A stretch of DNA of 64,000 nucleotides from Clostridium sp. CAG:1000 (GTDB lineage: Bacteria; Bacillota_I; Bacilli_A; RF39; UBA660): contig HG000341.1 of the NCBI GenBank assembly GCA_000436975.1, positions 1,535 through 65,534 of the forward strand. Reading direction: 5' to 3'. The translations under genes were made by a program, and so were the position numbers. This document shows, piece after piece, positions 782 through 53,214 of this stretch. A model generated the notes under the pieces. The model did no database searches. It saw nothing but the letters and a program-made list of their open reading frames with translations, and was not told the origin of the DNA. Position 1 is the stretch's first letter, and every line of letters begins with the position of its first letter.

Positions 782-1792
782 TTAATAATCAAATAAACTT
801 TGCTGATTATTTATTTTAAACTCTTTATATGTTTTCTCAGTTATTATTCTTCCCCTAGAAGTTCTCTTAACATAACCTTCTTGCAATAAGAAAGGCTCTA
901 TAACATCCTCTATGGTAGTGGCCTCTTCACCAATAGATGATGCGATTGACTCTATACCAACAGGACCCCCATTAAATTTATTTATAATACTCATTAAGTA
1001 TTCAATATCAGTACTATCAAGACCTGATTCATCTATTTTAAGCCTTTTAAGTGATGTTTTAACTATATCAAGACTAATAACACCATCACCATTAACTAGT
1101 GCGAAATCACTAACTCTTTTTAATAATCTATTAGCTATTCTAGGTGTTTTTCTACTTCTTTTTGCTATTTCATAAGCAGCATCATCTTCAATTTCAAGAT
1201 TAAGTACCCTTGCAGACCTTTTAACTATTTGACTTAACTCTTCATTAGTATAAAACTCTAATTTTGATATAATACCAAATCTATCTCTTAAAGGAGCTGT
1301 TAAATCTCCTGCTCTAGTAGTCGCACCTACTAAAGTAAATGGTGGTAAATCTATTTTAATATTTCTACTTTGTCCTTCTCCACCAATAATTATATCAAGT
1401 TTAAAGTCTTCCATCGCACTATATAATATTTCTTCTATATATCTAGGAATCCTATGTATTTCATCTATAAATAAAACATCATTAGGCTCAAGCGTAGAAA
1501 GTATTGCTGCTAAATCCCCACTCTTTTCTATAGTAGGACCACTTGCTGTTTTAATATTACTTCCAAGTTCATTTGCAATAATATGAGCAAGTGTCGTTTT
1601 ACCAAGACCAGGTGGGCCATATAAAAGAACATGATCAAGATTAGTACCTCTCATTCTAGCCGCCGATACAAAAACTTTAATGTTTTCTTTAACATCAGTT
1701 TGACCAACATATTCATCAAATGAATCTGGTCTTATAGTTTTTTCAAAAGTATCAGCTTCTAATTCATGATTTGTAACTATTCTTTCGTCCAT
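782..1792 (-). CDS. ruvB: Holliday junction branch-migration helicase RuvB
   Basis: Walker A motif [11 protein letters not shown], sensor motifs and full-length RuvB architecture. It lies in a ruvA...ruvB arrangement. Confidence 0.97.
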
Positions 1793-2944: not shown

Positions 2945-3553
2945 TCATAGATTTATTAATTCTTTATATTTTTTTGTTATCCTAAACATTGTATTTTCAA
3001 CAAACTTTTTATCTTTATCTATAAGACTAGATATTTCAGCATTTTTTAATCCTTTGAGTTTAAGTTCAAGAATATTACATTCCATCTTACTCAGTCTTTT
3101 CTTAAGTCTATTTACCATATCTTTTTGTTCTTCTTCATCTATAAGCAACTTATTTGGTTCCTGAGACATATCTTTAAATACTTCATAATAATTATTAGTT
3201 GATTCATTAAATAATTTATCTAATGAATAAGAATTATTAAGTATTCTATTTTTTTGTCTAAATGTTAATCTTATAGCTGATATAATGCTTTTTCTTATGC
3301 AAGTACATGCATATGTATAAAATAGTACTTCTTTATTTTTATCAAATGTCTCTATTGCATGTAAAAGCCCAATTAAACCCTCTTGATAAAGATCAGATAT
3401 TTCTATTCCAATAATGTTATACTCTTTTAAATATTCTTTTAAAATAGTTATAATACAACTTTTATATTTATTAATTATTAAATTAATTGCATCTTCATTA
3501 TTTTCATTGCATAAATAAATAAGTTCGTTATCATTTAATTCTCTATAGTCCAT
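2945..3553 (-). CDS. sigH: RNA polymerase sigma factor, SigH-like (sigma-70 family)
   Basis: Region 2 (DLYQEGLIGLLHAIETFD), a SigH-typical RQKNRILNNSYSLD segment, and a region 4 HTH. It lies directly downstream of rlmB, as in the Bacillus yacO-sigH order. Confidence 0.7.
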   Translation of the reverse strand: MDYRELNDNELIYLCNENNEDAINLIINKYKSCIITILKEYLKEYNIIGIEISDLYQEGLIGLLHAIETFDKNKEVLFYTYACTCIRKSIISAIRLTFRQKNRILNNSYSLDKLFNESTNNYYEVFKDMSQEPNKLLIDEEEQKDMVNRLKKRLSKMECNILELKLKGLKNAEISSLIDKDKKFVENTMFRITKKYKELINL

Positions 3554-26185: not shown

Positions 26186-26473
26186 TTACTTTGAAACTAC
26201 TTTAATATTACTATTATTATACTCCAAACCAAAAGTATCTGCAACTTGCATTGTATTATCTAAAGATGCAAGTTCATTTATTTTCATTTGCATACTCAAA
26301 TTTAATTTTTCTTGAGTTTCAATTTTACTCTTTAATCTTTGAAGTTCAGAGTTTTTAGATTGGATTTTAGCATTACCAACAAAATTACACATCAAAATAC
26401 CAAAAATAAGAACAAATATTATTTTTTTCATAGTTTTTTCGCCCTTAAATCTTACGTATTTTCTCTTTTTCAT
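26186..26473 (-). CDS. ftsL: cell division protein FtsL-like
   Basis: Small bitopic protein (transmembrane segment plus coiled coil) between rsmH and the PBP gene. Confidence 0.65.
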   Translation of the reverse strand: MKKRKYVRFKGEKTMKKIIFVLIFGILMCNFVGNAKIQSKNSELQRLKSKIETQEKLNLSMQMKINELASLDNTMQVADTFGLEYNNSNIKVVSK

Positions 26474-27375
26474 TATCTTACCCTTTCTATAACTCTTAAT
26501 TTAGAACTCCTGCTTCTATTATTTTCATTTATTTCATCTTCACTAGGAGTTAATTTAACTATCATTTTAGCTTTTGCTTTTAACTCTTCTGGTACGAATG
26601 GGAGCCTCTTTGTTGATTCATCATCAGAACATAATTTTTTAAATACATTACTCACTATTTTATCTTCTAATGAATGAAATGTTATTACAACAAGTCTACC
26701 ACCCACATTAAGTAAATCAAATGCATCGTTTAAAGAACTTTCTAATATATCAAGTTCATGATTTACTTCTATTCTTATTGCTTGAAATACCTTTCTTGCA
26801 GGATGAGATTTATTTCTATAACTGATTGGTACAGACTCTTTAATAATTTCTGCTAGCTCAAGAGTAGTATTAATTGGTCTAGAGTTTATTATGGCCTTAG
26901 CAATTGATTTTGAATATTTTTCTTCGCCGAATTTATAAAATATTCTAACCAAATCATTATAGCTATATTCATTCACTACTTTTCTAGCATCTAGTGGATT
27001 ATTTTTATCCATTCTCATATCAAGAACTGCATCTTTGTGAAAGCTAAACCCTCTGTCACCATCATCTAGTTGAGGACTTGATACACCAAGATCAAATAAT
27101 ATTCCATCAACTTTCTCATTAACATAGTTTTTCATATTAACAAAGTTACTTTTAAATATTGTGAAATTATCACCAATCTTGCTAAGTCTTTTAGTTGAAT
27201 ATGAAATTGCCTCATCATCTTGATCAAAGGCGAAAAGAACCCCTTCTTTTCCTATTTCCTTTAGTATGTGACTTGAATGACCACCATAGCCAACAGTCGC
27301 ATCTATATATTTACCACCCTGTTTCAAATTTAAATACTCTATTACCTCATTTAATAATACACTCTTATGCTTCAT
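26473..27375 (-). CDS. rsmH: 16S rRNA (cytosine1402-N4)-methyltransferase
   Basis: HKSVLLNEVIEYL, DATVGYGGHS and FDLGVSSPQLD motifs. Confidence 0.95.
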   Translation of the reverse strand: MKHKSVLLNEVIEYLNLKQGGKYIDATVGYGGHSSHILKEIGKEGVLFAFDQDDEAISYSTKRLSKIGDNFTIFKSNFVNMKNYVNEKVDGILFDLGVSSPQLDDGDRGFSFHKDAVLDMRMDKNNPLDARKVVNEYSYNDLVRIFYKFGEEKYSKSIAKAIINSRPINTTLELAEIIKESVPISYRNKSHPARKVFQAIRIEVNHELDILESSLNDAFDLLNVGGRLVVITFHSLEDKIVSNVFKKLCSDDESTKRLPFVPEELKAKAKMIVKLTPSEDEINENNRSRSSKLRVIERVR

Positions 27376-27805
27376 AAATATCACAATCGAAGATATTTTC
27401 AGTTATCTGTTCAAGATTGTCTTCATTATCATTCATATAACTTTCAAATTCTTCCTTACTCCATATTTCTAGTCGTTCACTTACGCCAATAATGACACAT
27501 TCTTTTTTTATATTGGCGTAATGAACTAACGGTGAGGTAATATTAATTCGACCTTGTTTATCGAATTCAATTAAAGAAGCTCCACCTATGAATGTTCTTT
27601 CAAATGCTCTAACATTCTTTTTAGTAAATTGTAAAGATGATACTTTTTGCATTAATTTGTTCCATTCAGTTTCTGAATAAACAAATAAGCACTTATCAAG
27701 ACCCTTAGTGATTACGAATCTTTCCCCTAGTTCACTTCTAAACTTAGCAGGAATAATAAGACGACTCTTTTCATCAATATTATGATGATATTCACCCATT
27801 AGCAT
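27365..27805 (-). CDS. mraZ: transcriptional regulator MraZ
   Basis: MLMGEYHHNIDEKSRLIIPAKFR, with two SpoVT/AbrB-like halves. The start is set at 27805 because upstream ORF-track residues overlap the operator repeats. Confidence 0.92.
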   Translation of the reverse strand: MLMGEYHHNIDEKSRLIIPAKFRSELGERFVITKGLDKCLFVYSETEWNKLMQKVSSLQFTKKNVRAFERTFIGGASLIEFDKQGRINITSPLVHYANIKKECVIIGVSERLEIWSKEEFESYMNDNEDNLEQITENIFDCDIYEA

Positions 27806-43736: not shown

Positions 43737-43994
43737 TTATCTAACAGTAAATATAACATATATGAACACAGAACTAATTGTCACTATAAGAGAAAGTAAC
43801 ATATAATCAGTAACCCTCATCATTTTTTTCTTTTTAGTGACATGCTCTTCTTCTTCAATAACCGTTCTTTCAAGTATTGGTTCCATCTTAATAGTATTTA
43901 AAAGTTCTTCTTCTTTTAATGCTTCTTCTCTTTTTCTAATTTGTTCATCTATATCTATAATCGCAGTTGTTTCAAAACCTACTGTATCTTTCAT
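43737..43994 (-). CDS. hypothetical small protein with a C-terminal transmembrane segment
   Basis: ORF only. Confidence 0.4.
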   Translation of the reverse strand: MKDTVGFETTAIIDIDEQIRKREEALKEEELLNTIKMEPILERTVIEEEEHVTKKKKMMRVTDYMLLSLIVTISSVFIYVIFTVR

Positions 43995-44090
43995 ATTTAC
44001 ACTTCCTTATATCTTTATATATCAATAATATCACAAATGTAAAACATATTACAAGTTTTTTTGCTTATTTTCTAACTTTATTATTTTCTC

Positions 44091-44119
44091 TTGACTTATC
44101 CAAAAATTTATCGTATTAT
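44091..44119 (+). promoter_or_regulatory. tRNA-Ser promoter (TTGACT-17-TATTAT)
   Basis: Hexamers at 44091-44096 and 44114-44119, about 15 nt before the tRNA 5' end. Confidence 0.6.
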
Positions 44120-44133
44120 TTATATGTGCTTAT

Positions 44134-44224
44134 GGAGACATACTCAAGAGGCTGAAGAGGTGCCCCTGCTAAGGGTATAGATCGGGAAACTGGTGCGAGA
44201 GTTCGAATCTCTCTGTCTCCGCCA
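44134..44224 (+). tRNA. tRNA-Ser (anticodon GCU), encoded CCA
   Basis: GGAGACA acceptor stem pairs with TGTCTCC. It has a CTGCTAA anticodon loop, a long variable arm and a GTTCGAATC T-loop. Confidence 0.92.
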
Positions 44225-44234
44225 TATGAAAATT

Positions 44235-44259
44235 AACTCAAGATTTCTTGAGTTTTTTT
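44235..44259 (+). terminator. intrinsic terminator after tRNA-Ser
   Basis: AACTCAAG-ATTT-CTTGAGTT followed by T5. Confidence 0.75.
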
Positions 44260-44292
44260 GTTTTTAATTTTATAATTGTATTAGGAGGAACT

Positions 44293-44670
44293 ATGATAGA
44301 TTTTAAAAATAAAACATTTTTCAAGTTAAAAGCAATTGATAATAAAGAAGGAGAAAAAATAGTTAGTGACATTTTAATACCTAATGAAAAAGTATTCGCA
44401 TCATTCGGAGCATTAAGAGACAAACTAGTATTTACAGACAAAAGAATAATTTCAATTAATGTGCAGGGAATTACAGGTGCTAAAAAAGATTTTACATCTA
44501 TTCCCTACTCTAGAATACAAACATATTCAGTAGAGACTGCTGGTACATTAGATTTAGATGCTGAACTTGATATAACTATCAGTGGACTGGGTACTGTTAG
44601 ATTTGAATTAACAAATTCAAGTAATATAAAAGAAATATGTGCTAAAATATCAGAAAAGATTTTAAACTAA
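44293..44670 (+). CDS. bacterial PH-domain protein (YokE-like)
   Basis: AGGAGGAA SD before the ATG at 44293. The pattern ...ALRDKLVFTDKRIISINVQG...FTSIPYSRIQTYSVET... is typical of bPH domains. Confidence 0.55.
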   Translation: MIDFKNKTFFKLKAIDNKEGEKIVSDILIPNEKVFASFGALRDKLVFTDKRIISINVQGITGAKKDFTSIPYSRIQTYSVETAGTLDLDAELDITISGLGTVRFELTNSSNIKEICAKISEKILN

Positions 44671-44685
44671 AAGCAAGATTTTGAA

Positions 44686-45219
44686 TTAGTCTTGCTTTTT
44701 ATTTGTTTTATTATATTCATTACATTTTTCTTCTAATAATGTAAAATTGCAACATCTTTTATAAATGTTTGAGTCTAAAGTTCCATTTTTGAATTTATTA
44801 TATAATTTTTTAGATTTATTATAAAGTTTTTCATCATTACGATTAAGCCAATAAATCTGTTCCTGCAACATTTTTGTATATTTTAATTCACTCGTTGTAA
44901 AACACTCTTTATCTAAATCGATTTTTTCAACATTTTGACTCATTACTGGAATCATATTGTTGAAATTAACAGCACCAAGTTTACCATTATCTATTTTTAA
45001 AAAGTCTAGTGTAGTTCTCATTGTCTTATGTTTAGACTTTGGACTTGATAAAGGAGCAAAATAACTACAATTATTTACTTTAAATAAAACTCCAATAAAT
45101 GGTCTTAATTGTTTTTTATCAAAATTATATGGAATCCTTTTATCAAACTTTCTTAAATAATCACAATATTTTTGATCTAATCTAACTAAAATTAAATTTT
45201 CCACTTTCATCACCTCCAT
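44686..45219 (-). CDS. toxN: type III toxin-antitoxin toxin, ToxN/AbiQ-family endoribonuclease
   Basis: YFAPLSSPKSKH, LGAVNFNNMIPV and CNFTLLEEKCNEY align with ToxN LAPLTSPKKWH, LGLINLKFMIP and CNFSLLEEKYRDF. The true start may be the GTG at 45204, after GGAGG. Confidence 0.9.
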   Translation of the reverse strand: MEVMKVENLILVRLDQKYCDYLRKFDKRIPYNFDKKQLRPFIGVLFKVNNCSYFAPLSSPKSKHKTMRTTLDFLKIDNGKLGAVNFNNMIPVMSQNVEKIDLDKECFTTSELKYTKMLQEQIYWLNRNDEKLYNKSKKLYNKFKNGTLDSNIYKRCCNFTLLEEKCNEYNKTNKKQD

Positions 45220-45253
45220 TTTATAAGTGTCGTTTTATTTAGTTGATATAACA

Positions 45254-45282
45254 TTTATATCATGCAAACAAAAGTTTGTCAA
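45254..45282 (-). promoter_or_regulatory. candidate internal promoter (TTGACA-17-TATAAA) between the antitoxin terminator and toxN
   Basis: Reverse strand TTGACA (45282-45277), a 17-nt spacer, then TATAAA (45259-45254). Confidence 0.45.
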
Positions 45283-45303
45283 TTGCTTTTTTATCATAAT
45301 ATT

Positions 45304-45327
45304 AAAAAACTAGAGTTTGCTCTCTAG
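45304..45327 (-). terminator. intrinsic terminator between antitoxin repeats and toxN
   Basis: Reverse strand CTAGAG-AGCAAA-CTCTAG followed by T6. This is the position where ToxIN-type loci attenuate toxin transcription. Confidence 0.75.
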
Positions 45328-45330
45328 TTA

Positions 45331-45442
45331 CTTTTTTAAGTTCCATTTACGGCTGGAATCACCGCTTTTTTAAGTTCCTATCAAAGTTGGAATCACTTCT
45401 TTTTTAAGTTCCTATCAAAGTTGGAATCACTTGCTTTTTTAA
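45331..45442 (-). ncRNA. toxI: ToxI/antiQ-like antitoxin RNA: three tandem 34-35 nt repeats plus a partial fourth
   Basis: Units lie at 45332-45365, 45366-45399 and 45400-45434, with a partial unit at 45435-45442. Units 2 and 3 are identical over 33 nt. The transcribed-strand unit is GAAGTGATTCCAACTTTGATAGGAACTTAAAAAA. A TATAAT -10 lies at 45465-45460. Confidence 0.85.
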
Positions 45443-45612
45443 TATTACACACTTACAATATTATATGAATATATACTCTACTGTTTCGTGCATATTAAGT
45501 ATATCATAAAAATATATGTTTGTCTATTACTTTTTTTGTAAAGAAATTGTCTTAATAATTAAAAATAATATCTTATTATGATAAAATAAATAAGTATGAT
45601 TAAGGAGTTAAA

Positions 45613-47757
45613 ATGAATAAAGAAATAATAGATGAAATATCAAATAATTTAAATATTAAAAATAATCAAATAGAGGCAGTATTAAAACTACTTGAAGAAG
45701 GAAATACTATTCCATTTATCGCACGTTATAGAAAAGAAGCAACCGGTGCTTTAGATGAGGAACAAATAAGACAAATAAATGAATATTATGAATATCAAAT
45801 TAGCCTACTTAAGAGAAAAGAAACTGTAATTAAGCTTATTGATGAAAAAGGAATGCTTACAGATGAAATTAAAAATAATATAATGTCTTGTAAAAAATTA
45901 GTTGAGGTTGATGATATATATGCACCTTATAAAGAAAAGAAAAAAACTAAAGCAACTGAAGCTATCAAAAACGGTCTTGAAGGCCTTGCTAAAATAATAA
46001 TGAGCGAGCCTGAAAAATGGAATGAAGAATCAGTAAACAAATTCTTAAATGAGAATGTTAAAAATATAGAAGATGCTTTAACTGGAGCTAAGTATATAAT
46101 TGCTGAATGGATAAGTGATAATGCTTACTATAGAAAATGGATAAGAAGTTACTTTTTTAAAAATGGTATACTTACTACTAAGTTAAAATCAAAAGCAGAA
46201 GATACAAATAAAACTTATGAGATGTATTATGAGTTTAGTGAACCAGTTAAATACATAAAACCACATAGAGTTTTAGCAATAAATAGAGGCGAAAATGAAA
46301 AGATATTATCTGTATCAATAGATGTCAATATAGAAGATATATTATCATATATAGAATCTAAAAATATTAAAAAAGAAAGCCCTGTTAACTATTTAATAAA
46401 AGATGCTATTAAAGACAGTTATAAAAGACTTATTTGTCCTTCAATAGAACGTGAAGTTAGAAGTGAACTTACTACTAGAAGTGAAGATAAATCTATAGAA
46501 GTATTTAAAGAAAACTTAGAAAATCTTTTATTAATTGCACCTATGAAAGAAAAAACTGTATTAGGCTTTGACCCAGCATTTAGAACCGGTTGTAAACTAG
46601 CTGTAGTAGACCCTACTTCTAAAGTACTTAATATATCTGTTATATATCCTCATGAACCTAAAAATGAATGGGAAAAGTCTAAACAAATATTAAAAGATAT
46701 AATTAATAAATTCAAAGTAGATATAGTTGCGATTGGTAATGGTACTGCATCTAGAGAAAGTGAAAAATTGGTAAGTGAAACAGTTAAGGAATTAAATCAT
46801 TGTAAGTTTGCTATTGTATCAGAAGCAGGAGCAAGCGTATATAGTGCAAGTCCTCTTGCTATTAAAGAATTTCCTGATTTACATGTAGAACAAAGAAGTG
46901 CTGTTTCTATTGCAAGAAGACTTCAAGATCCATTAAATGAACTTGTTAAAATAGATCCAAAGTCTATAGGCGTTGGTCAGTATCAGCATGATGTTTCTCA
47001 AAAGAAATTATCAGAATCTCTTGATTTCACTGTTACAAAATGTGTTAATAATGTAGGTGTTAATATTAATACAGCTTCCCCTTCCATATTAAAATATATA
47101 TCTGGTCTTACAACTGCTGCGATTAATAAAATAATTAAATATAGAGAAGAACATGGTAAAATAACTTCAAGAGATGAAATAAAAAAGAAAAAATTATTAA
47201 ATGATAAAACTTATGAACAAGCAATAGGTTTCATGAGAGTAATAGATGGACCTAATAAACTTGATGAAACAAATATTCATACAGAAAGTTATGATAAAAC
47301 TCTTTCTTTATTAAAACATATTAATATGTCAGTAAATGATATTGGTACTAAAGAATTAATAAGCAAGTTAGATACTCTTGATATTAACGAAACATCTAAA
47401 TTATTAGATATAGATATTTATACCTTAAATGATATTATTGATTCATTAAAAATGCCTAATAGAGACTTTAGAGATGATTATGAAACACCACTATTAAAAA
47501 GTGATGTCTTATCACTCGATAACTTAAAAGTTGGTATGAAACTCGAAGGTACTGTTAGAAATGTTGTTGACTTTGGAGCATTCATAGATATAGGACTTCA
47601 TGATGCTGCTTTAGTACATATATCAAAAATAACTAATAAATATATTAAACACCCTAGTGAAGTATTAAGTGTTGGTGATATAGTTACTTGTTATGTAATA
47701 GATATAAATAAAGATAAAGAAAAAGTTTCCCTTTCACTAATAGATCCAAATAATTAG
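45613..47757 (+). CDS. tex: transcription accessory protein Tex (S1 RNA-binding domain protein)
   Basis: N-terminal IPFIARYRKEATG, YqgF-like and HhH regions, and a C-terminal S1 domain (GTVRNVVDFGAFIDIG). Confidence 0.93.
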   Translation: MNKEIIDEISNNLNIKNNQIEAVLKLLEEGNTIPFIARYRKEATGALDEEQIRQINEYYEYQISLLKRKETVIKLIDEKGMLTDEIKNNIMSCKKLVEVDDIYAPYKEKKKTKATEAIKNGLEGLAKIIMSEPEKWNEESVNKFLNENVKNIEDALTGAKYIIAEWISDNAYYRKWIRSYFFKNGILTTKLKSKAEDTNKTYEMYYEFSEPVKYIKPHRVLAINRGENEKILSVSIDVNIEDILSYIESKNIKKESPVNYLIKDAIKDSYKRLICPSIEREVRSELTTRSEDKSIEVFKENLENLLLIAPMKEKTVLGFDPAFRTGCKLAVVDPTSKVLNISVIYPHEPKNEWEKSKQILKDIINKFKVDIVAIGNGTASRESEKLVSETVKELNHCKFAIVSEAGASVYSASPLAIKEFPDLHVEQRSAVSIARRLQDPLNELVKIDPKSIGVGQYQHDVSQKKLSESLDFTVTKCVNNVGVNINTASPSILKYISGLTTAAINKIIKYREEHGKITSRDEIKKKKLLNDKTYEQAIGFMRVIDGPNKLDETNIHTESYDKTLSLLKHINMSVNDIGTKELISKLDTLDINETSKLLDIDIYTLNDIIDSLKMPNRDFRDDYETPLLKSDVLSLDNLKVGMKLEGTVRNVVDFGAFIDIGLHDAALVHISKITNKYIKHPSEVLSVGDIVTCYVIDINKDKEKVSLSLIDPNN

Positions 47758-51842: not shown

Positions 51843-52642
51843 TTTAAATCACCCACCTTATATTTAATATCATTTTCTAAAAAATAATAATCACTATCTA
51901 TTAAATTACATAAGGAATCACTTTCACACTCAGATAATATTATTTTTTCACTAATATCATCTATATCAGTAAGATTAATTATTAAATTAAAGCATTCTAA
52001 TTTATTAAGATACTTTGATGCACAAAATATTCTATCATTTAGAATAACACTTCCTGTTTTTTCTTCTTTAACAATAAGCTTATGATGAGAAGATTTTTCA
52101 TTAAGATTATAATAGTTCTCATTACTATCTATATTATAATATTTATTAAAATTACTTACTAATGCTCTTCTTGAATACATAAGTGTATTTTTAGAAACAT
52201 AAAAATAAAATATATTACTCTTACATTCATTATTTATTTTCATAAGTTCATCTATTGTAAGATCATTATTAATAACAACACTATTAATACCAAGAGTATT
52301 TAAATAATTAACTGCTTTATAATTTGATAATATATGATGCTCATATAAAATTATTCTTTTTTTTGGTATAAAGCTTAAAAGACCAATATCTTCAACAATA
52401 AATTTAATGTTATCATTAAACTTACTTAAGTCAAAATCATATACTTGTTTATGTAGTAATCTATTCATAATAACATAAACTGCATTAGACTTTGCAATTT
52501 TATTTATTTCATCAATCTCAAAATAAACATTAAATCCTATAGAATAATCTTTTAATGGTAAGATAAAAGTATTGAAACCATACTCTTCATATAGTTTCAA
52601 TTCTTTTCTTTTTGGTAAAATTATAAATTCTTTCTTTTGCAT
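51839..52642 (-). CDS. U32-family-like protein (YrrN position)
   Basis: A 4-nt overlap with the downstream U32 gene and conserved synteny. The sequence is divergent. Confidence 0.5.
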   Translation of the reverse strand: MQKKEFIILPKRKELKLYEEYGFNTFILPLKDYSIGFNVYFEIDEINKIAKSNAVYVIMNRLLHKQVYDFDLSKFNDNIKFIVEDIGLLSFIPKKRIILYEHHILSNYKAVNYLNTLGINSVVINNDLTIDELMKINNECKSNIFYFYVSKNTLMYSRRALVSNFNKYYNIDSNENYYNLNEKSSHHKLIVKEEKTGSVILNDRIFCASKYLNKLECFNLIINLTDIDDISEKIILSECESDSLCNLIDSDYYFLENDIKYKVGDLK

Positions 52643-53214
52643 ACCCCTATCGTATCACCTACTTTTATAAATTCAACTGAAAACTCATCTTGAGTCTTTA
52701 AATATGTTATAAACTTTTCTATTTTACGAACCATTTGTCTTAAATTTCTACTTTTAATAGAAGAACTATTAAATACATAACCATGGAAATCCAAGTTATC
52801 GATTATTATAACACCTTTTTCATTTAAATTATACTTATATTTATCTAAAAATCTTTTGTTTTGGCTTTTAGCAGCATCTATAATAATTAAATCATACATA
52901 CCTTCAATATTTGTATTTAAAGCATCATAATGTATTAATTCTATATTTGATAAACCACTTGATAAGACATTATTATAAGCAATATTATATCTTTCATCAT
53001 CTCTTTCAATACTAGTTATCTTTTCAATATTTTTATTACTAGCAAAACATAAAGTAGAGTATCCAATAGCACTACCTATTTCAAGTATAGATTTAATATT
53101 ATTTTCATCTATTATTTTATTAATTGTATCAATAGTATCTTTACTCATTATTGGTACATTATTATTAATACCATATTTTCTTATTTCATCTATTAATTTT
53201 GATATTCTATCCAT
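52621..53214 (-). CDS. trmR: SAM-dependent O-methyltransferase (YrrM/TrmR-like)
   Basis: SAM motif ILEIGSAIGYST, DLIIIDAAK, and position between mltG and the U32 genes. Confidence 0.75.
   Translation of the reverse strand: MDRISKLIDEIRKYGINNNVPIMSKDTIDTINKIIDENNIKSILEIGSAIGYSTLCFASNKNIEKITSIERDDERYNIAYNNVLSSGLSNIELIHYDALNTNIEGMYDLIIIDAAKSQNKRFLDKYKYNLNEKGVIIIDNLDFHGYVFNSSSIKSRNLRQMVRKIEKFITYLKTQDEFSVEFIKVGDTIGVCKRKNL

Follow-up and report, generated by a model that had tools for sequence, protein, structure and literature searches.

The 64,000-nucleotide (nt) stretch of contig HG000341.1 of Clostridium sp. CAG:1000 analysed here (the window; GC content: 25.5%) carries a cassette between the gene encoding Tex (45613-47757, plus strand) and a convergent gene encoding a bPH-domain protein (44248-44670, plus strand). 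Read along the minus strand, the cassette consists of promoter-like sites, an array of tandem repeats, a hairpin with a T-run, a ribosome-binding site (RBS) and toxN, which codes for a protein of the ToxN/AbiQ family (Table 1). This order is that of the published definition of a type III toxin-antitoxin locus (PMC5086642, PMC8860590), and we consider a chromosomal type III locus of the ToxIN family, belonging to the ToxN_Bt-like branch, to be the best explanation of the cassette by far. Direct support comes from the family, fold and active-site residues of the toxin, the anatomy of the array and its co-conservation with the toxin gene, covariation in a pseudoknot, and the terminator and promoter motifs.

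The minus-strand open reading frame (ORF) 44686-45219 encodes 177 amino acids (aa) and includes the blocks YFAPLSSPKSKH, LGAVNFNNMIPV and CNFTLLEEK, by which an earlier sequence-only reading had recognised it as ToxN/AbiQ. This identity is confirmed by the ToxN_toxin family (PF13958; 164.4 bits; E = 3e-48; profile positions 3-159 of 159; cut-off: 25 bits), which is the only Pfam family matched, by the PADLOC AbiQ model (135.8 bits; E = 3.7e-40) and by four solved relatives, namely ToxN_Bt (4ATO), ToxN_Pa (2XD0), ToxN_Ec (7D8O) and AbiQ (4GLK), with E-values of 1e-14 to 1e-25, the best PDB match being 4ATO (E = 2.8e-25; 4GLK: E = 2.8e-14). An AlphaFold model of the protein (predicted local distance difference test, pLDDT: 86.7; predicted template modelling score, pTM: 0.79) aligns in Foldseek with 4ATO, 2XD0, 7D8O and 4GLK at template modelling (TM) scores of 0.76, 0.75, 0.79 and 0.72, respectively, while the next family, CptN, scores 0.57. 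As modelled, the window toxin has the ToxN fold. The true start of toxN is most likely the GTG at 45204 rather than the ATG at 45219, giving a 172 aa product, since GGAGG is found 8 nt upstream of this GTG, the members of a protein cluster sharing 99% identity with the window toxin (P0001) are likewise 172 aa long, and the homologues begin with M-E-(S/N)-L at the aligned codon. An aligned GAAGGTGAT/GGAGG also precedes the start codons of the toxN relatives. Within 45202-45219, the mechanically assigned ATG start at 45219 overlaps the Shine-Dalgarno sequence.

The active site of ToxN_Pa is formed by Tyr29, Lys33, Thr52, Ser53 and Lys55 (PMC5086642, PMC8860590), and Arg34, Ser53, Ser54 and Lys56 of the window toxin align with the last four of these residues, respectively. 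In an alignment of 23 sequences of the clade, Arg34, Ser54 and Lys56 are invariant and Ser53 is nearly so, and the 59 invariant columns of this alignment include active-site positions. ToxN_Bt and the E. coli clusters 4 and 5 (PMC8860590) also have an arginine at the Lys33 position, and AbiQ has a serine at that of Thr52. Among the homologues, that of the Fusobacterium polymorphum plasmid pKKCOM1330A (L089; 674-1546) is annotated as a 290 aa protein and carries a C-terminal extension of ~120 aa which is absent from other ToxN proteins.

The antitoxin array was delimited by Tandem Repeats Finder to 45331-45442 (period: 34; copies: 3.3; matches: 87%; score: 159), in agreement with the three repeats of 34-35 nt and the partial fourth that had been noted upstream of the ORF on the same strand. 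Two of these repeats had been described as identical over 33 nt; units 1 and 2 are indeed identical, but over a stretch of 34 nt. Elsewhere in the window, array units have only weak partial matches of up to 13 bits with large deletions, which represent noise. An A6-G sequence opens every unit of the window array, and this junction is invariant in all of the 111 distinct units compared (111/111), as a sequence-specific cleavage site might be expected to look, and it agrees with the specificity of ToxN_Bt for A/AAAA (PMC5086642). The partial fourth unit, of which the same A-run and G precede the hairpin in nearly all relatives, would then provide the 3′ cleavage site that releases unit 3.

A genome scan yielded at least 529 loci encoding relatives of the toxin, of which 80 were kept and combined with six same-species metagenome contigs into a set of 86 loci. 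By their labels, the relatives come from metagenome-assembled genomes of uncultured gut Bacilli, 'Tenericutes', Erysipelotrichaceae or Clostridia, and the number of loci shows that ToxIN-type modules are frequent among the uncultured, AT-rich Bacilli and Clostridia of the gut. An array is located upstream of the toxin gene in 79/86 loci, with repeats of 34-40 nt in mostly ~3.2 copies (Tandem Repeats Finder), and most of the seven loci lacking one end upstream at a contig end. The window array (34 nt x 3.3) falls within the range published for toxIN repeats (31-62 nt; 1.9-5.6 copies; PMC3401426). Exactly three full units are present in 58 of 68 arrays, unit 1 holds an extra nucleotide in 53 of the 68, and one identical unit-1 sequence was found in 13 loci. 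As unit 1 is longer and the same unit 1 recurs across loci, the units represent position-specific orthologues rather than homogenised copies. Three units and a terminal A-run would give three processed RNAs per transcript, and thus one complex of the triangular 3:3 form reported for ToxIN (PMC5086642).

The alignment of 111 units was obtained from 115 distinct units that were extracted, after exclusion of four (L054.6 and L065.1-3) in which the core is followed by an additional C. Default MAFFT and L-INS-i shifted the 3′ GGAA block out of register, and the units were instead anchored on sequence motifs and padded with N where lengths differed. The structure tested was an H-type pseudoknot with helices S1 (N9-N11 with N19-N21, and a weak N8:N22) and S2 (N14-N18 with N26 and N28-N31). 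In this arrangement 91.2% of the pseudoknot cells are paired, compared to 79.2 +/- 0.6% in shuffles, and the covariation score of 0.373 (shuffles: 0.155) was reached by 0/500 shuffles, although such counts are not probabilities because the units share kinship. The controls with slid partners and the variety of pair types provide a stronger argument. When the partners were slid by one to three columns, pairing fell to 29-47% of cells, and compensatory changes can be observed at N9:N21 (GC 78, AU 32), N11:N19 (UA 48, CG 36, UG 26), N18:N26 (GC 42, CG 36, AU 25, UA 1) and N15:N30 (UA 107, CG 3). The same test on 31 distinct units of 34 nt, which align naturally without gaps, gave 98% of cells paired, and the score was again reached by 0/500 shuffles. 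The minimum free energy (MFE) fold of unit 2 is no better than its shuffles, and the structural argument rests on covariation instead of energy, as single-unit MFE folding cannot represent pseudoknots. Each unit is therefore predicted to form an H-type pseudoknot with single-stranded tails, on the evidence of two crossing helices with compensatory changes, and the pseudoknot proposed earlier for a single repeat unit finds its support in this covariation.

These data also bear on the nature of the repeats. Their near identity in units 1 and 2 is what recent duplications would produce, and they could in principle be DNA-level elements, such as iterons or operator repeats, or a chance tandem duplication in AT-rich DNA, in place of an RNA antitoxin. 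We give this explanation almost no credence, given that compensatory changes keep two crossing helices across the 111 distinct units, a signature of selection on RNA structure, that the array is strictly tied to toxN in a fixed orientation and distance, and that the A6-G junction is invariant.

Table 1. Coordinates of the features of the cassette and of further ORFs in the window.
Feature	Position	Strand	Remarks
Candidate distal promoter, TAGACA-17 nt-TATACT with TG extension	45498..45526	-	10/12 match + TG; motif-level
Leader, distal promoter to unit 1	45441..45497	-	45436-45500 folds at -13.6 kcal/mol, z = -2.9
Proximal -10-like TATAAT, within conserved CATATAAT motif	45460..45465	-	motif-level
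ToxI-like unit 1, 35 nt, AAAAAAGCAAGTGATTCCAACTTTGATAGGAACTT	45406..45440	-	model R1: 43.6 bits
ToxI-like unit 2, 34 nt, AAAAAAGAAGTGATTCCAACTTTGATAGGAACTT	45372..45405	-	model R1: 53.4 bits
ToxI-like unit 3, 34 nt, AAAAAAGCGGTGATTCCAGCCGTAAATGGAACTT	45338..45371	-	model R1: 48.3 bits
Partial fourth unit, AAAAAAG	45331..45337	-	
Intrinsic-terminator-like hairpin, AACTAGAG-AGCAAA-CTCTAGTT, with T-run	45304..45329	-	hairpin 45329-45308, T-run to 45304
Toxin-proximal promoter-like site, TTGACA-17 nt-TATAAA with TG extension	45254..45282	-	11/12 match; encloses CAAACTTTTGTTTG
Palindrome CAAACTTTTGTTTG, LexA-box-like	45265..45278	-	8/10 arm matches
Shine-Dalgarno sequence, GGAGG	45213..45217	-	8 nt ahead of GTG 45204
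toxN, ToxN/AbiQ-family endoribonuclease toxin, 172 aa	44686..45204	-	probable GTG start; stop codon 44688-44686
Bidirectional terminator-like hairpin, common to toxN and the convergent bPH-domain gene	44669..44699	.	-10.8 kcal/mol, z = -3.3 (minus strand)
ORF with partial PADLOC match	782-1792		Pfam: RuvB
ORF with partial PADLOC match	2945-3553		Pfam: sigma-70 factor
ORF with partial PADLOC match	26473-27384		Pfam: RsmH/MraW
ORF with partial PADLOC match	52621-53214		Pfam: O-methyltransferase

A number of observations weigh against the ToxIN assignment, among them natural toxN-null alleles, a promoter-like site at an unexpected position and the function ascribed to ToxIN_Bt, each of which is discussed below. 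The host bacterium is uncultured, none of the NCBIfam models matches the window toxin, and Tyr29 of ToxN_Pa is unconserved, with Lys30 in its place in the window toxin; it is likewise unconserved in ToxN_Bt. Furthermore, an Rfam scan of window positions 44000-46000 that included ToxI (RF02519; gathering score: 50 bits) left the repeats unmatched even at E <= 10. In the positive control, the pAW63 units were scored at 59.2, 47.1 and 39.8 bits, while the units of ToxI_Pa, Fusobacterium, C. botulinum and the C. difficile phage were also missed by RF02519. Because these other reference ToxI units are missed, the Rfam ToxI model must be considered narrow, covering essentially pAW63-type units only. 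The model of the window RNA family, R1, in turn left the reference ToxI RNAs undetected, bar an 11-bit partial match to one C. difficile-phage variant. The window antitoxin RNA thus has the architecture and mechanism class of ToxI_Bt, but forms a new sequence family that is absent from Rfam. The sequence-only reading had suggested a possible new variant of antitoxin RNA, and this is upheld at the level of the sequence family, by the RF02519 and R1 evidence, but not at that of the unit architecture, which is the same as in the ToxI_Bt type. With a narrow Rfam model and gene tables that list the toxin only, the cognate antitoxin RNA is invisible to current annotation, and the covarying alignment of 111 units could seed a new RNA family and improve the annotation of defence systems in gut metagenomes.

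The cassette is present in all ten of the same-species places with an identical Tex protein, among which there is no empty site, while the window neighbours within 3 kb of the cassette were seen in none of the 80 distant relatives (0/80). As the neighbourhoods differ between genomes, the cassette behaves as a self-contained module. In two of the ten distinct same-species places, toxN is nevertheless disrupted by independent mutations that leave the arrays intact. A G to A change at 44937 results in a premature stop (Q90*) in L101 (GCA_902472265.1), while L098 has lost 174 nt between two direct repeats of AATTGNTTTTTTATCA (at ~45107 and ~45281), and with them the 5′ end of toxN, the RBS and most of the toxin-proximal promoter-like site, including its -10. 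These null alleles, at two of ten places, indicate a toxin that the species can dispense with or that carries a cost. They are also what would be found if the cassette were a decaying or inactive remnant, in which the toxin is catalytically dead or unexpressed and the repeats are relics. This is, however, highly improbable, as the window ORF is intact and of full length, the 59 columns that are invariant in the 23 homologues include the active-site positions, compensatory changes are maintained in the RNA stems, and a stretch of 1,021 bp is shared at 100% identity by eight of the ten places that have the identical Tex protein.

Upstream of the array, an extended -10 (TGnTATAnT) is located ~65-75 nt ahead of unit 1 in most relatives, with TAGACA-17-TGaTATACT as the counterpart in the window. 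The TATAAT that had been pointed out at 45465-45460 is present, but when the window sequence was read directly no good -35 was found 16-18 nt upstream of it. It corresponds to a GCATATAAT motif that is common to the relatives ~20-30 nt ahead of unit 1, and in the ToxIN_Bt locus of pAW63 the promoter position is likewise occupied by a CTGCATATAAT motif. In the relatives, unit 1 is directly preceded by a small hairpin whose sequence varies (mean MFE of -4.26 versus -1.20 +/- 0.17 in shuffles; 68 loci) and which is weak in the window (-0.6). The leader of many loci also holds a GCACATAAGTGATTATGTTGTGC-type inverted repeat (upstream regions L001-L080).

Between the array and toxN, the hairpin with a T-run that had been reported earlier was recovered at 45329-45308 (MFE: -9.4 kcal/mol; z = -2.7), and on motif and energy evidence 45329-45304 is a putative Rho-independent terminator. 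Terminator-like sites number five in 2 kb, where 0.3 would be expected. The terminator sequence, ACTAGAGAGCA(A/C)ACTCTAGTTTT, is nearly base-identical, loop included, across loci whose toxins are only 60-75% identical, a degree of conservation that exceeds the need of a terminator.

The sequence-only reading had proposed a layout of promoter, repeat RNA, attenuating terminator and toxin. This order is observed, but the layout may be incomplete, as the stretch from the terminator to toxN holds a strong promoter-like site. Type III loci have been described with a single promoter for both genes (PMC5086642), a description which this site does not fit. Over both strands of the window it is one of 12 sites matching at >=11/12 and one of six of these with a TG extension, and palindromes with <=2 mismatches to a LexA-like box number three in the whole window. 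The 37-nt stretches 45256-45292 and 45500-45536 form a direct repeat with 81% identity, such that the proximal and distal promoter-like regions are paralogous copies, and each copy is preceded on the minus strand by AAAAAAG, the sequence with which the units start.

Similar features can be observed in the relatives. The hexamer TATAAT is present in 45/68 of the spacers that follow the terminator, mostly 17-29 nt before the start codon, compared to 13.4 +/- 2.9 in shuffles, and in 11/24 spacer clusters after collapsing, compared to 4.0 +/- 1.7. LexA-box-like palindromes matching at >=8/10 occur in 5/24 long spacers, where 0.05 would be expected, and CGAAC-N4-GTTCG-like boxes are found at the same place in related long-spacer promoters. 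Besides the window, post-terminator promoter or palindrome features were recorded in L033, L038, L043, L046, L054, L063, L065, L068 and L070. Enrichment is restricted to the TATAAT hexamer and the palindrome, with no significant enrichment of generic extended -10 and full -35/-10 patterns in these spacers. A toxN promoter between terminator and toxN thus appears to be common among the relatives; it would not be universal, because spacers of 22-32 nt are too short to hold one.

The locus may accordingly operate as two transcription units, with the array ending at an efficient terminator and toxN transcribed mainly from its own promoter (45282-45254), perhaps held by a repressor at CAAACTTTTGTTTG, so that two promoters set the toxin-to-antitoxin ratio. 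We regard this as a possibility worth entertaining, though on balance a doubtful one. It is favoured by the quality of the proximal site (11/12 with TG; one of 12 in 128 kb of strand), by its paralogy with the distal promoter, by the counts of TATAAT and palindromes in the spacers and by the natural deletion in L098, which takes out this promoter together with the toxN 5′ end. All of these matches to consensus are, however, drawn from DNA of 25% GC, and kinship among the loci inflates the counts. The window hexamer is TATAAA rather than TATAAT, the palindrome has AAAC/GTTT arms in place of a GAAC/GTTC core, and the short spacers imply that read-through suffices in some relatives. The more specific proposal that toxN in the ToxIN clade of gut Bacilli and Clostridia has its own promoter with a LexA-box-like operator, toxin and antitoxin being separately regulated units, is speculative and seems unlikely to us. 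Among the papers searched, none was found that links LexA to type III systems, and the window yielded no LexA gene when compared to a B. subtilis query, although 64 kb is uninformative in this respect. Should the proposal be correct, DNA damage or another signal sensed by a repressor could favour the toxin over the antitoxin. The models published for type III systems assume a single promoter and read-through of the terminator; if the conserved toxin-proximal promoter and its operator-like palindrome are real, the setting of the toxin-to-antitoxin ratio would have to be viewed differently.

For the ToxIN locus in the window we infer a mechanism of A-run processing, inhibition by pseudoknots and toxin release upon loss of the RNA, by analogy with ToxIN_Bt, ToxIN_Pa and AbiQ, and the transcription, cleavage site, neutralisation, complex stoichiometry and biological role given here all form part of this scheme. 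Transcription of the leader and the three pseudoknot units would be driven by a promoter ahead of the array (45526-45498 and/or TATAAT, 45465-45460) and would mostly end at the hairpin 45329-45304, while toxN (45204-44686) would be expressed through read-through and/or from its own promoter-like site (45282-45254). ToxN would cut the precursor in the invariant A-run of each unit, as suggested by the A/AAAA specificity of ToxN_Bt, to give RNAs of 34-35 nt, each of which would fold as an H-type pseudoknot (S1: 9-11/19-21; S2: 14-18/26, 28-31) with single-stranded tails. Bound to ToxN in a head-to-tail manner, these RNAs would block its active site, probably in a 3:3 triangle as in the ToxIN_Pa and ToxIN_Bt structures. 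If the RNA supply falls or the RNA is displaced, through phage infection or transcription shut-off, the more stable ToxN would be freed to cleave A-rich RNAs, which would be abundant in a genome of 25.5% GC, and growth would stop, as abortive infection or as addiction.

A role in phage defence is plausible by analogy, and constitutes the weakest link of the overall interpretation, because in the literature consulted the role reported for ToxIN_Bt, the closest characterised relative, is plasmid retention during sporulation (PMC4615649). The main function of the same module could hence be selfish, as a cassette for addiction or stabilisation, or lie in the stress response, which we hold to be rather unlikely, if far from negligible. 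Along with the function of ToxIN_Bt, it would account for the fixation of the cassette, which occupies one and the same site in each of the ten same-species places examined, and for its surroundings, in which Tex, tRNA-Ser, GltX, trigger factor and GreA are housekeeping functions that form no defence island. A search for further defence proteins in the 64 kb gave none: when the 60 other window ORFs of >=130 aa were compared to PADLOC, partial domain matches only were obtained, and the description of the cassette as the sole clear defence element in the window holds at this scope. On the other hand, ToxIN_Pa and AbiQ are abortive-infection systems (PMC5086642), relatives are found on phage and plasmid genomes, and a chromosomal locus has no obvious replicon to stabilise. 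The persistence of toxN-null alleles with an intact array is, moreover, what relaxed or fluctuating, phage-driven selection would give.

The weak partial PADLOC matches (IetA, MzaA and mad2) were rejected as defence genes, as the proteins concerned are housekeeping proteins by Pfam (Table 1). Beyond the bPH-domain gene (PF08000), the cassette is flanked by a tRNA-Ser gene, an 85-aa ORF and GltX. The tRNA-Ser(GCT) gene (44134-44224, plus strand) is located just upstream of the bPH-domain gene and has its own terminator-like hairpin (44235-44254). The 85-aa ORF (43737-43994, minus strand), which codes for a product with a hydrophobic C-terminus, is called as a gene and conserved in all same-species contigs, and a Pfam search with it returned no match.

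For comparison with known systems, the reference ToxI arrays were read directly from their own loci (pECA1039, pAW63 and others). CptIN and TenpIN are built on the same general plan as the window locus, with RNA repeats in tandem, a terminator and a toxin that acts as an endoribonuclease (PMC3401426). Membership of the window locus in either was ruled out, however, as PF13958 is the sole Pfam match of the toxin, CptN aligns with its model at a TM score of 0.57 only (E = 1.7e-3; 16% identity), and the repeats of 34-35 nt are shorter than those of cptI (40-48 nt) and tenpI (39-57 nt; PMC3401426).

The founding member of the family, ToxIN_Pa of Pectobacterium atrosepticum (pECA1039; 2XD0/2XDD), shares the fold (TM: 0.75), the order of the locus and a pseudoknot antitoxin with the window locus, and S1 starts with GGUGAUU in the units of both. 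The ToxI_Pa unit (AGGTGATTTGCTACCTTTAAGTGCAGCTAGAAATTC; 36 nt x 5.6) is nevertheless without an A6 run and is cleaved at AA/AU (PMC5086642), the toxins share ~28-32% identity, and Thr52 and Lys33 of ToxN_Pa are replaced by Ser and Arg in the window toxin. The AbiQ-antiQ system of Lactococcus lactis (pSRQ900; 4GLK) is likewise matched by the window toxin, through the PADLOC AbiQ model and the fold (TM: 0.72), and the window toxin also has a serine at the position of AbiQ Ser51, where ToxN_Pa has Thr52 (PMC5086642). AbiQ is plasmid-borne, has a demonstrated abortive-infection phenotype and is, by sequence and fold scores, farther from the window toxin than ToxN_Bt or ToxN_Pa. The antiQ repeat is 35 nt x 2.8 and AbiQ cleaves at A/AAA (PMC5086642); the window RNA was compared with antiQ by length and copy number only. 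The sequence-only reading had placed the repeat closer to antiQ than to ToxI (36 nt, 5.5 copies), but of the characterised systems it is ToxIN_Bt of pAW63 (34 nt x 2.9-3.1; best PDB match: 4ATO), and not specifically antiQ, that comes nearest.

The closest toxins on plasmids and phages, with 39-45% identity, are encoded in uncharacterised loci of a Fusobacterium polymorphum plasmid, Clostridium botulinum p1/phage D-1873 and Clostridioides phage pCD1602_4. Their units, which the window units parallel in layout, follow the pattern A5-6 G(U)CGGUG ... UACC(G/A)UAUAAG ..., in 37-39 nt x 3.2-3.4, and are followed by a terminator hairpin. Specifically, the unit is AAAAAGTCGGTGTACTCTACCGTATAAGTGAGAACTA (37 nt x 3.4) in the F. 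polymorphum plasmid, 38-39 nt x 3.2 in C. botulinum p1 and AAAAAGCGGTGATGCTCTACCATATAGTGAGCAATTT (37 nt x 3.2) in the C. difficile phage, a variant of which (GGUAAGUUCCUACCAUAAGUGGAA) is the one partially matched by model R1 at 11 bits. The units of these three sources are longer than those of the window and differ in their S2 sequences, the whole units are missed by R1, and the loci are located on mobile replicons.

Among the solved systems, ToxIN_Bt of B. thuringiensis (pAW63; 4ATO; RF02519) is the best relative of the window toxin (TM: 0.76), although the two toxins share only ~32% identity. The locus of ToxIN_Bt is on a conjugative plasmid while that of the window is chromosomal, and the window has a 57-nt leader before unit 1 as well as the promoter-like site between terminator and toxN, the latter being absent from the pAW63 locus. 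The RNAs belong to distinct sequence families, RF02519 and R1 each missing the units of the other (ToxI_Bt unit: AAAATTGGTGTAACCTTACCGTAGTAGGTGCTAA, 34 nt x 3.1; consensus unit of the window family: AAAAAAGCGGTGATTCCCACCATAAGAGGAACTT, 34 nt x ~3.2). The two systems nevertheless agree in having a 34-nt unit in ~3 copies (34 nt x 3.1 as read from pAW63; 34 nt x 2.9 in PMC5086642), an arginine in place of ToxN_Pa Lys33 and a CATATAAT -10 motif upstream of the array. In both, an A-run opens each unit, which fits the A/AAAA specificity of ToxN_Bt (PMC5086642), and is followed by a GGUG-type S1 5′ strand, the S2 5′ strand, the S1 3′ strand, a purine-rich loop, the S2 3′ strand and a tail. The window locus itself is an expected kind of element that would not surprise a specialist, and one whose antitoxin unit has its elements in the same order as that of ToxIN_Bt.

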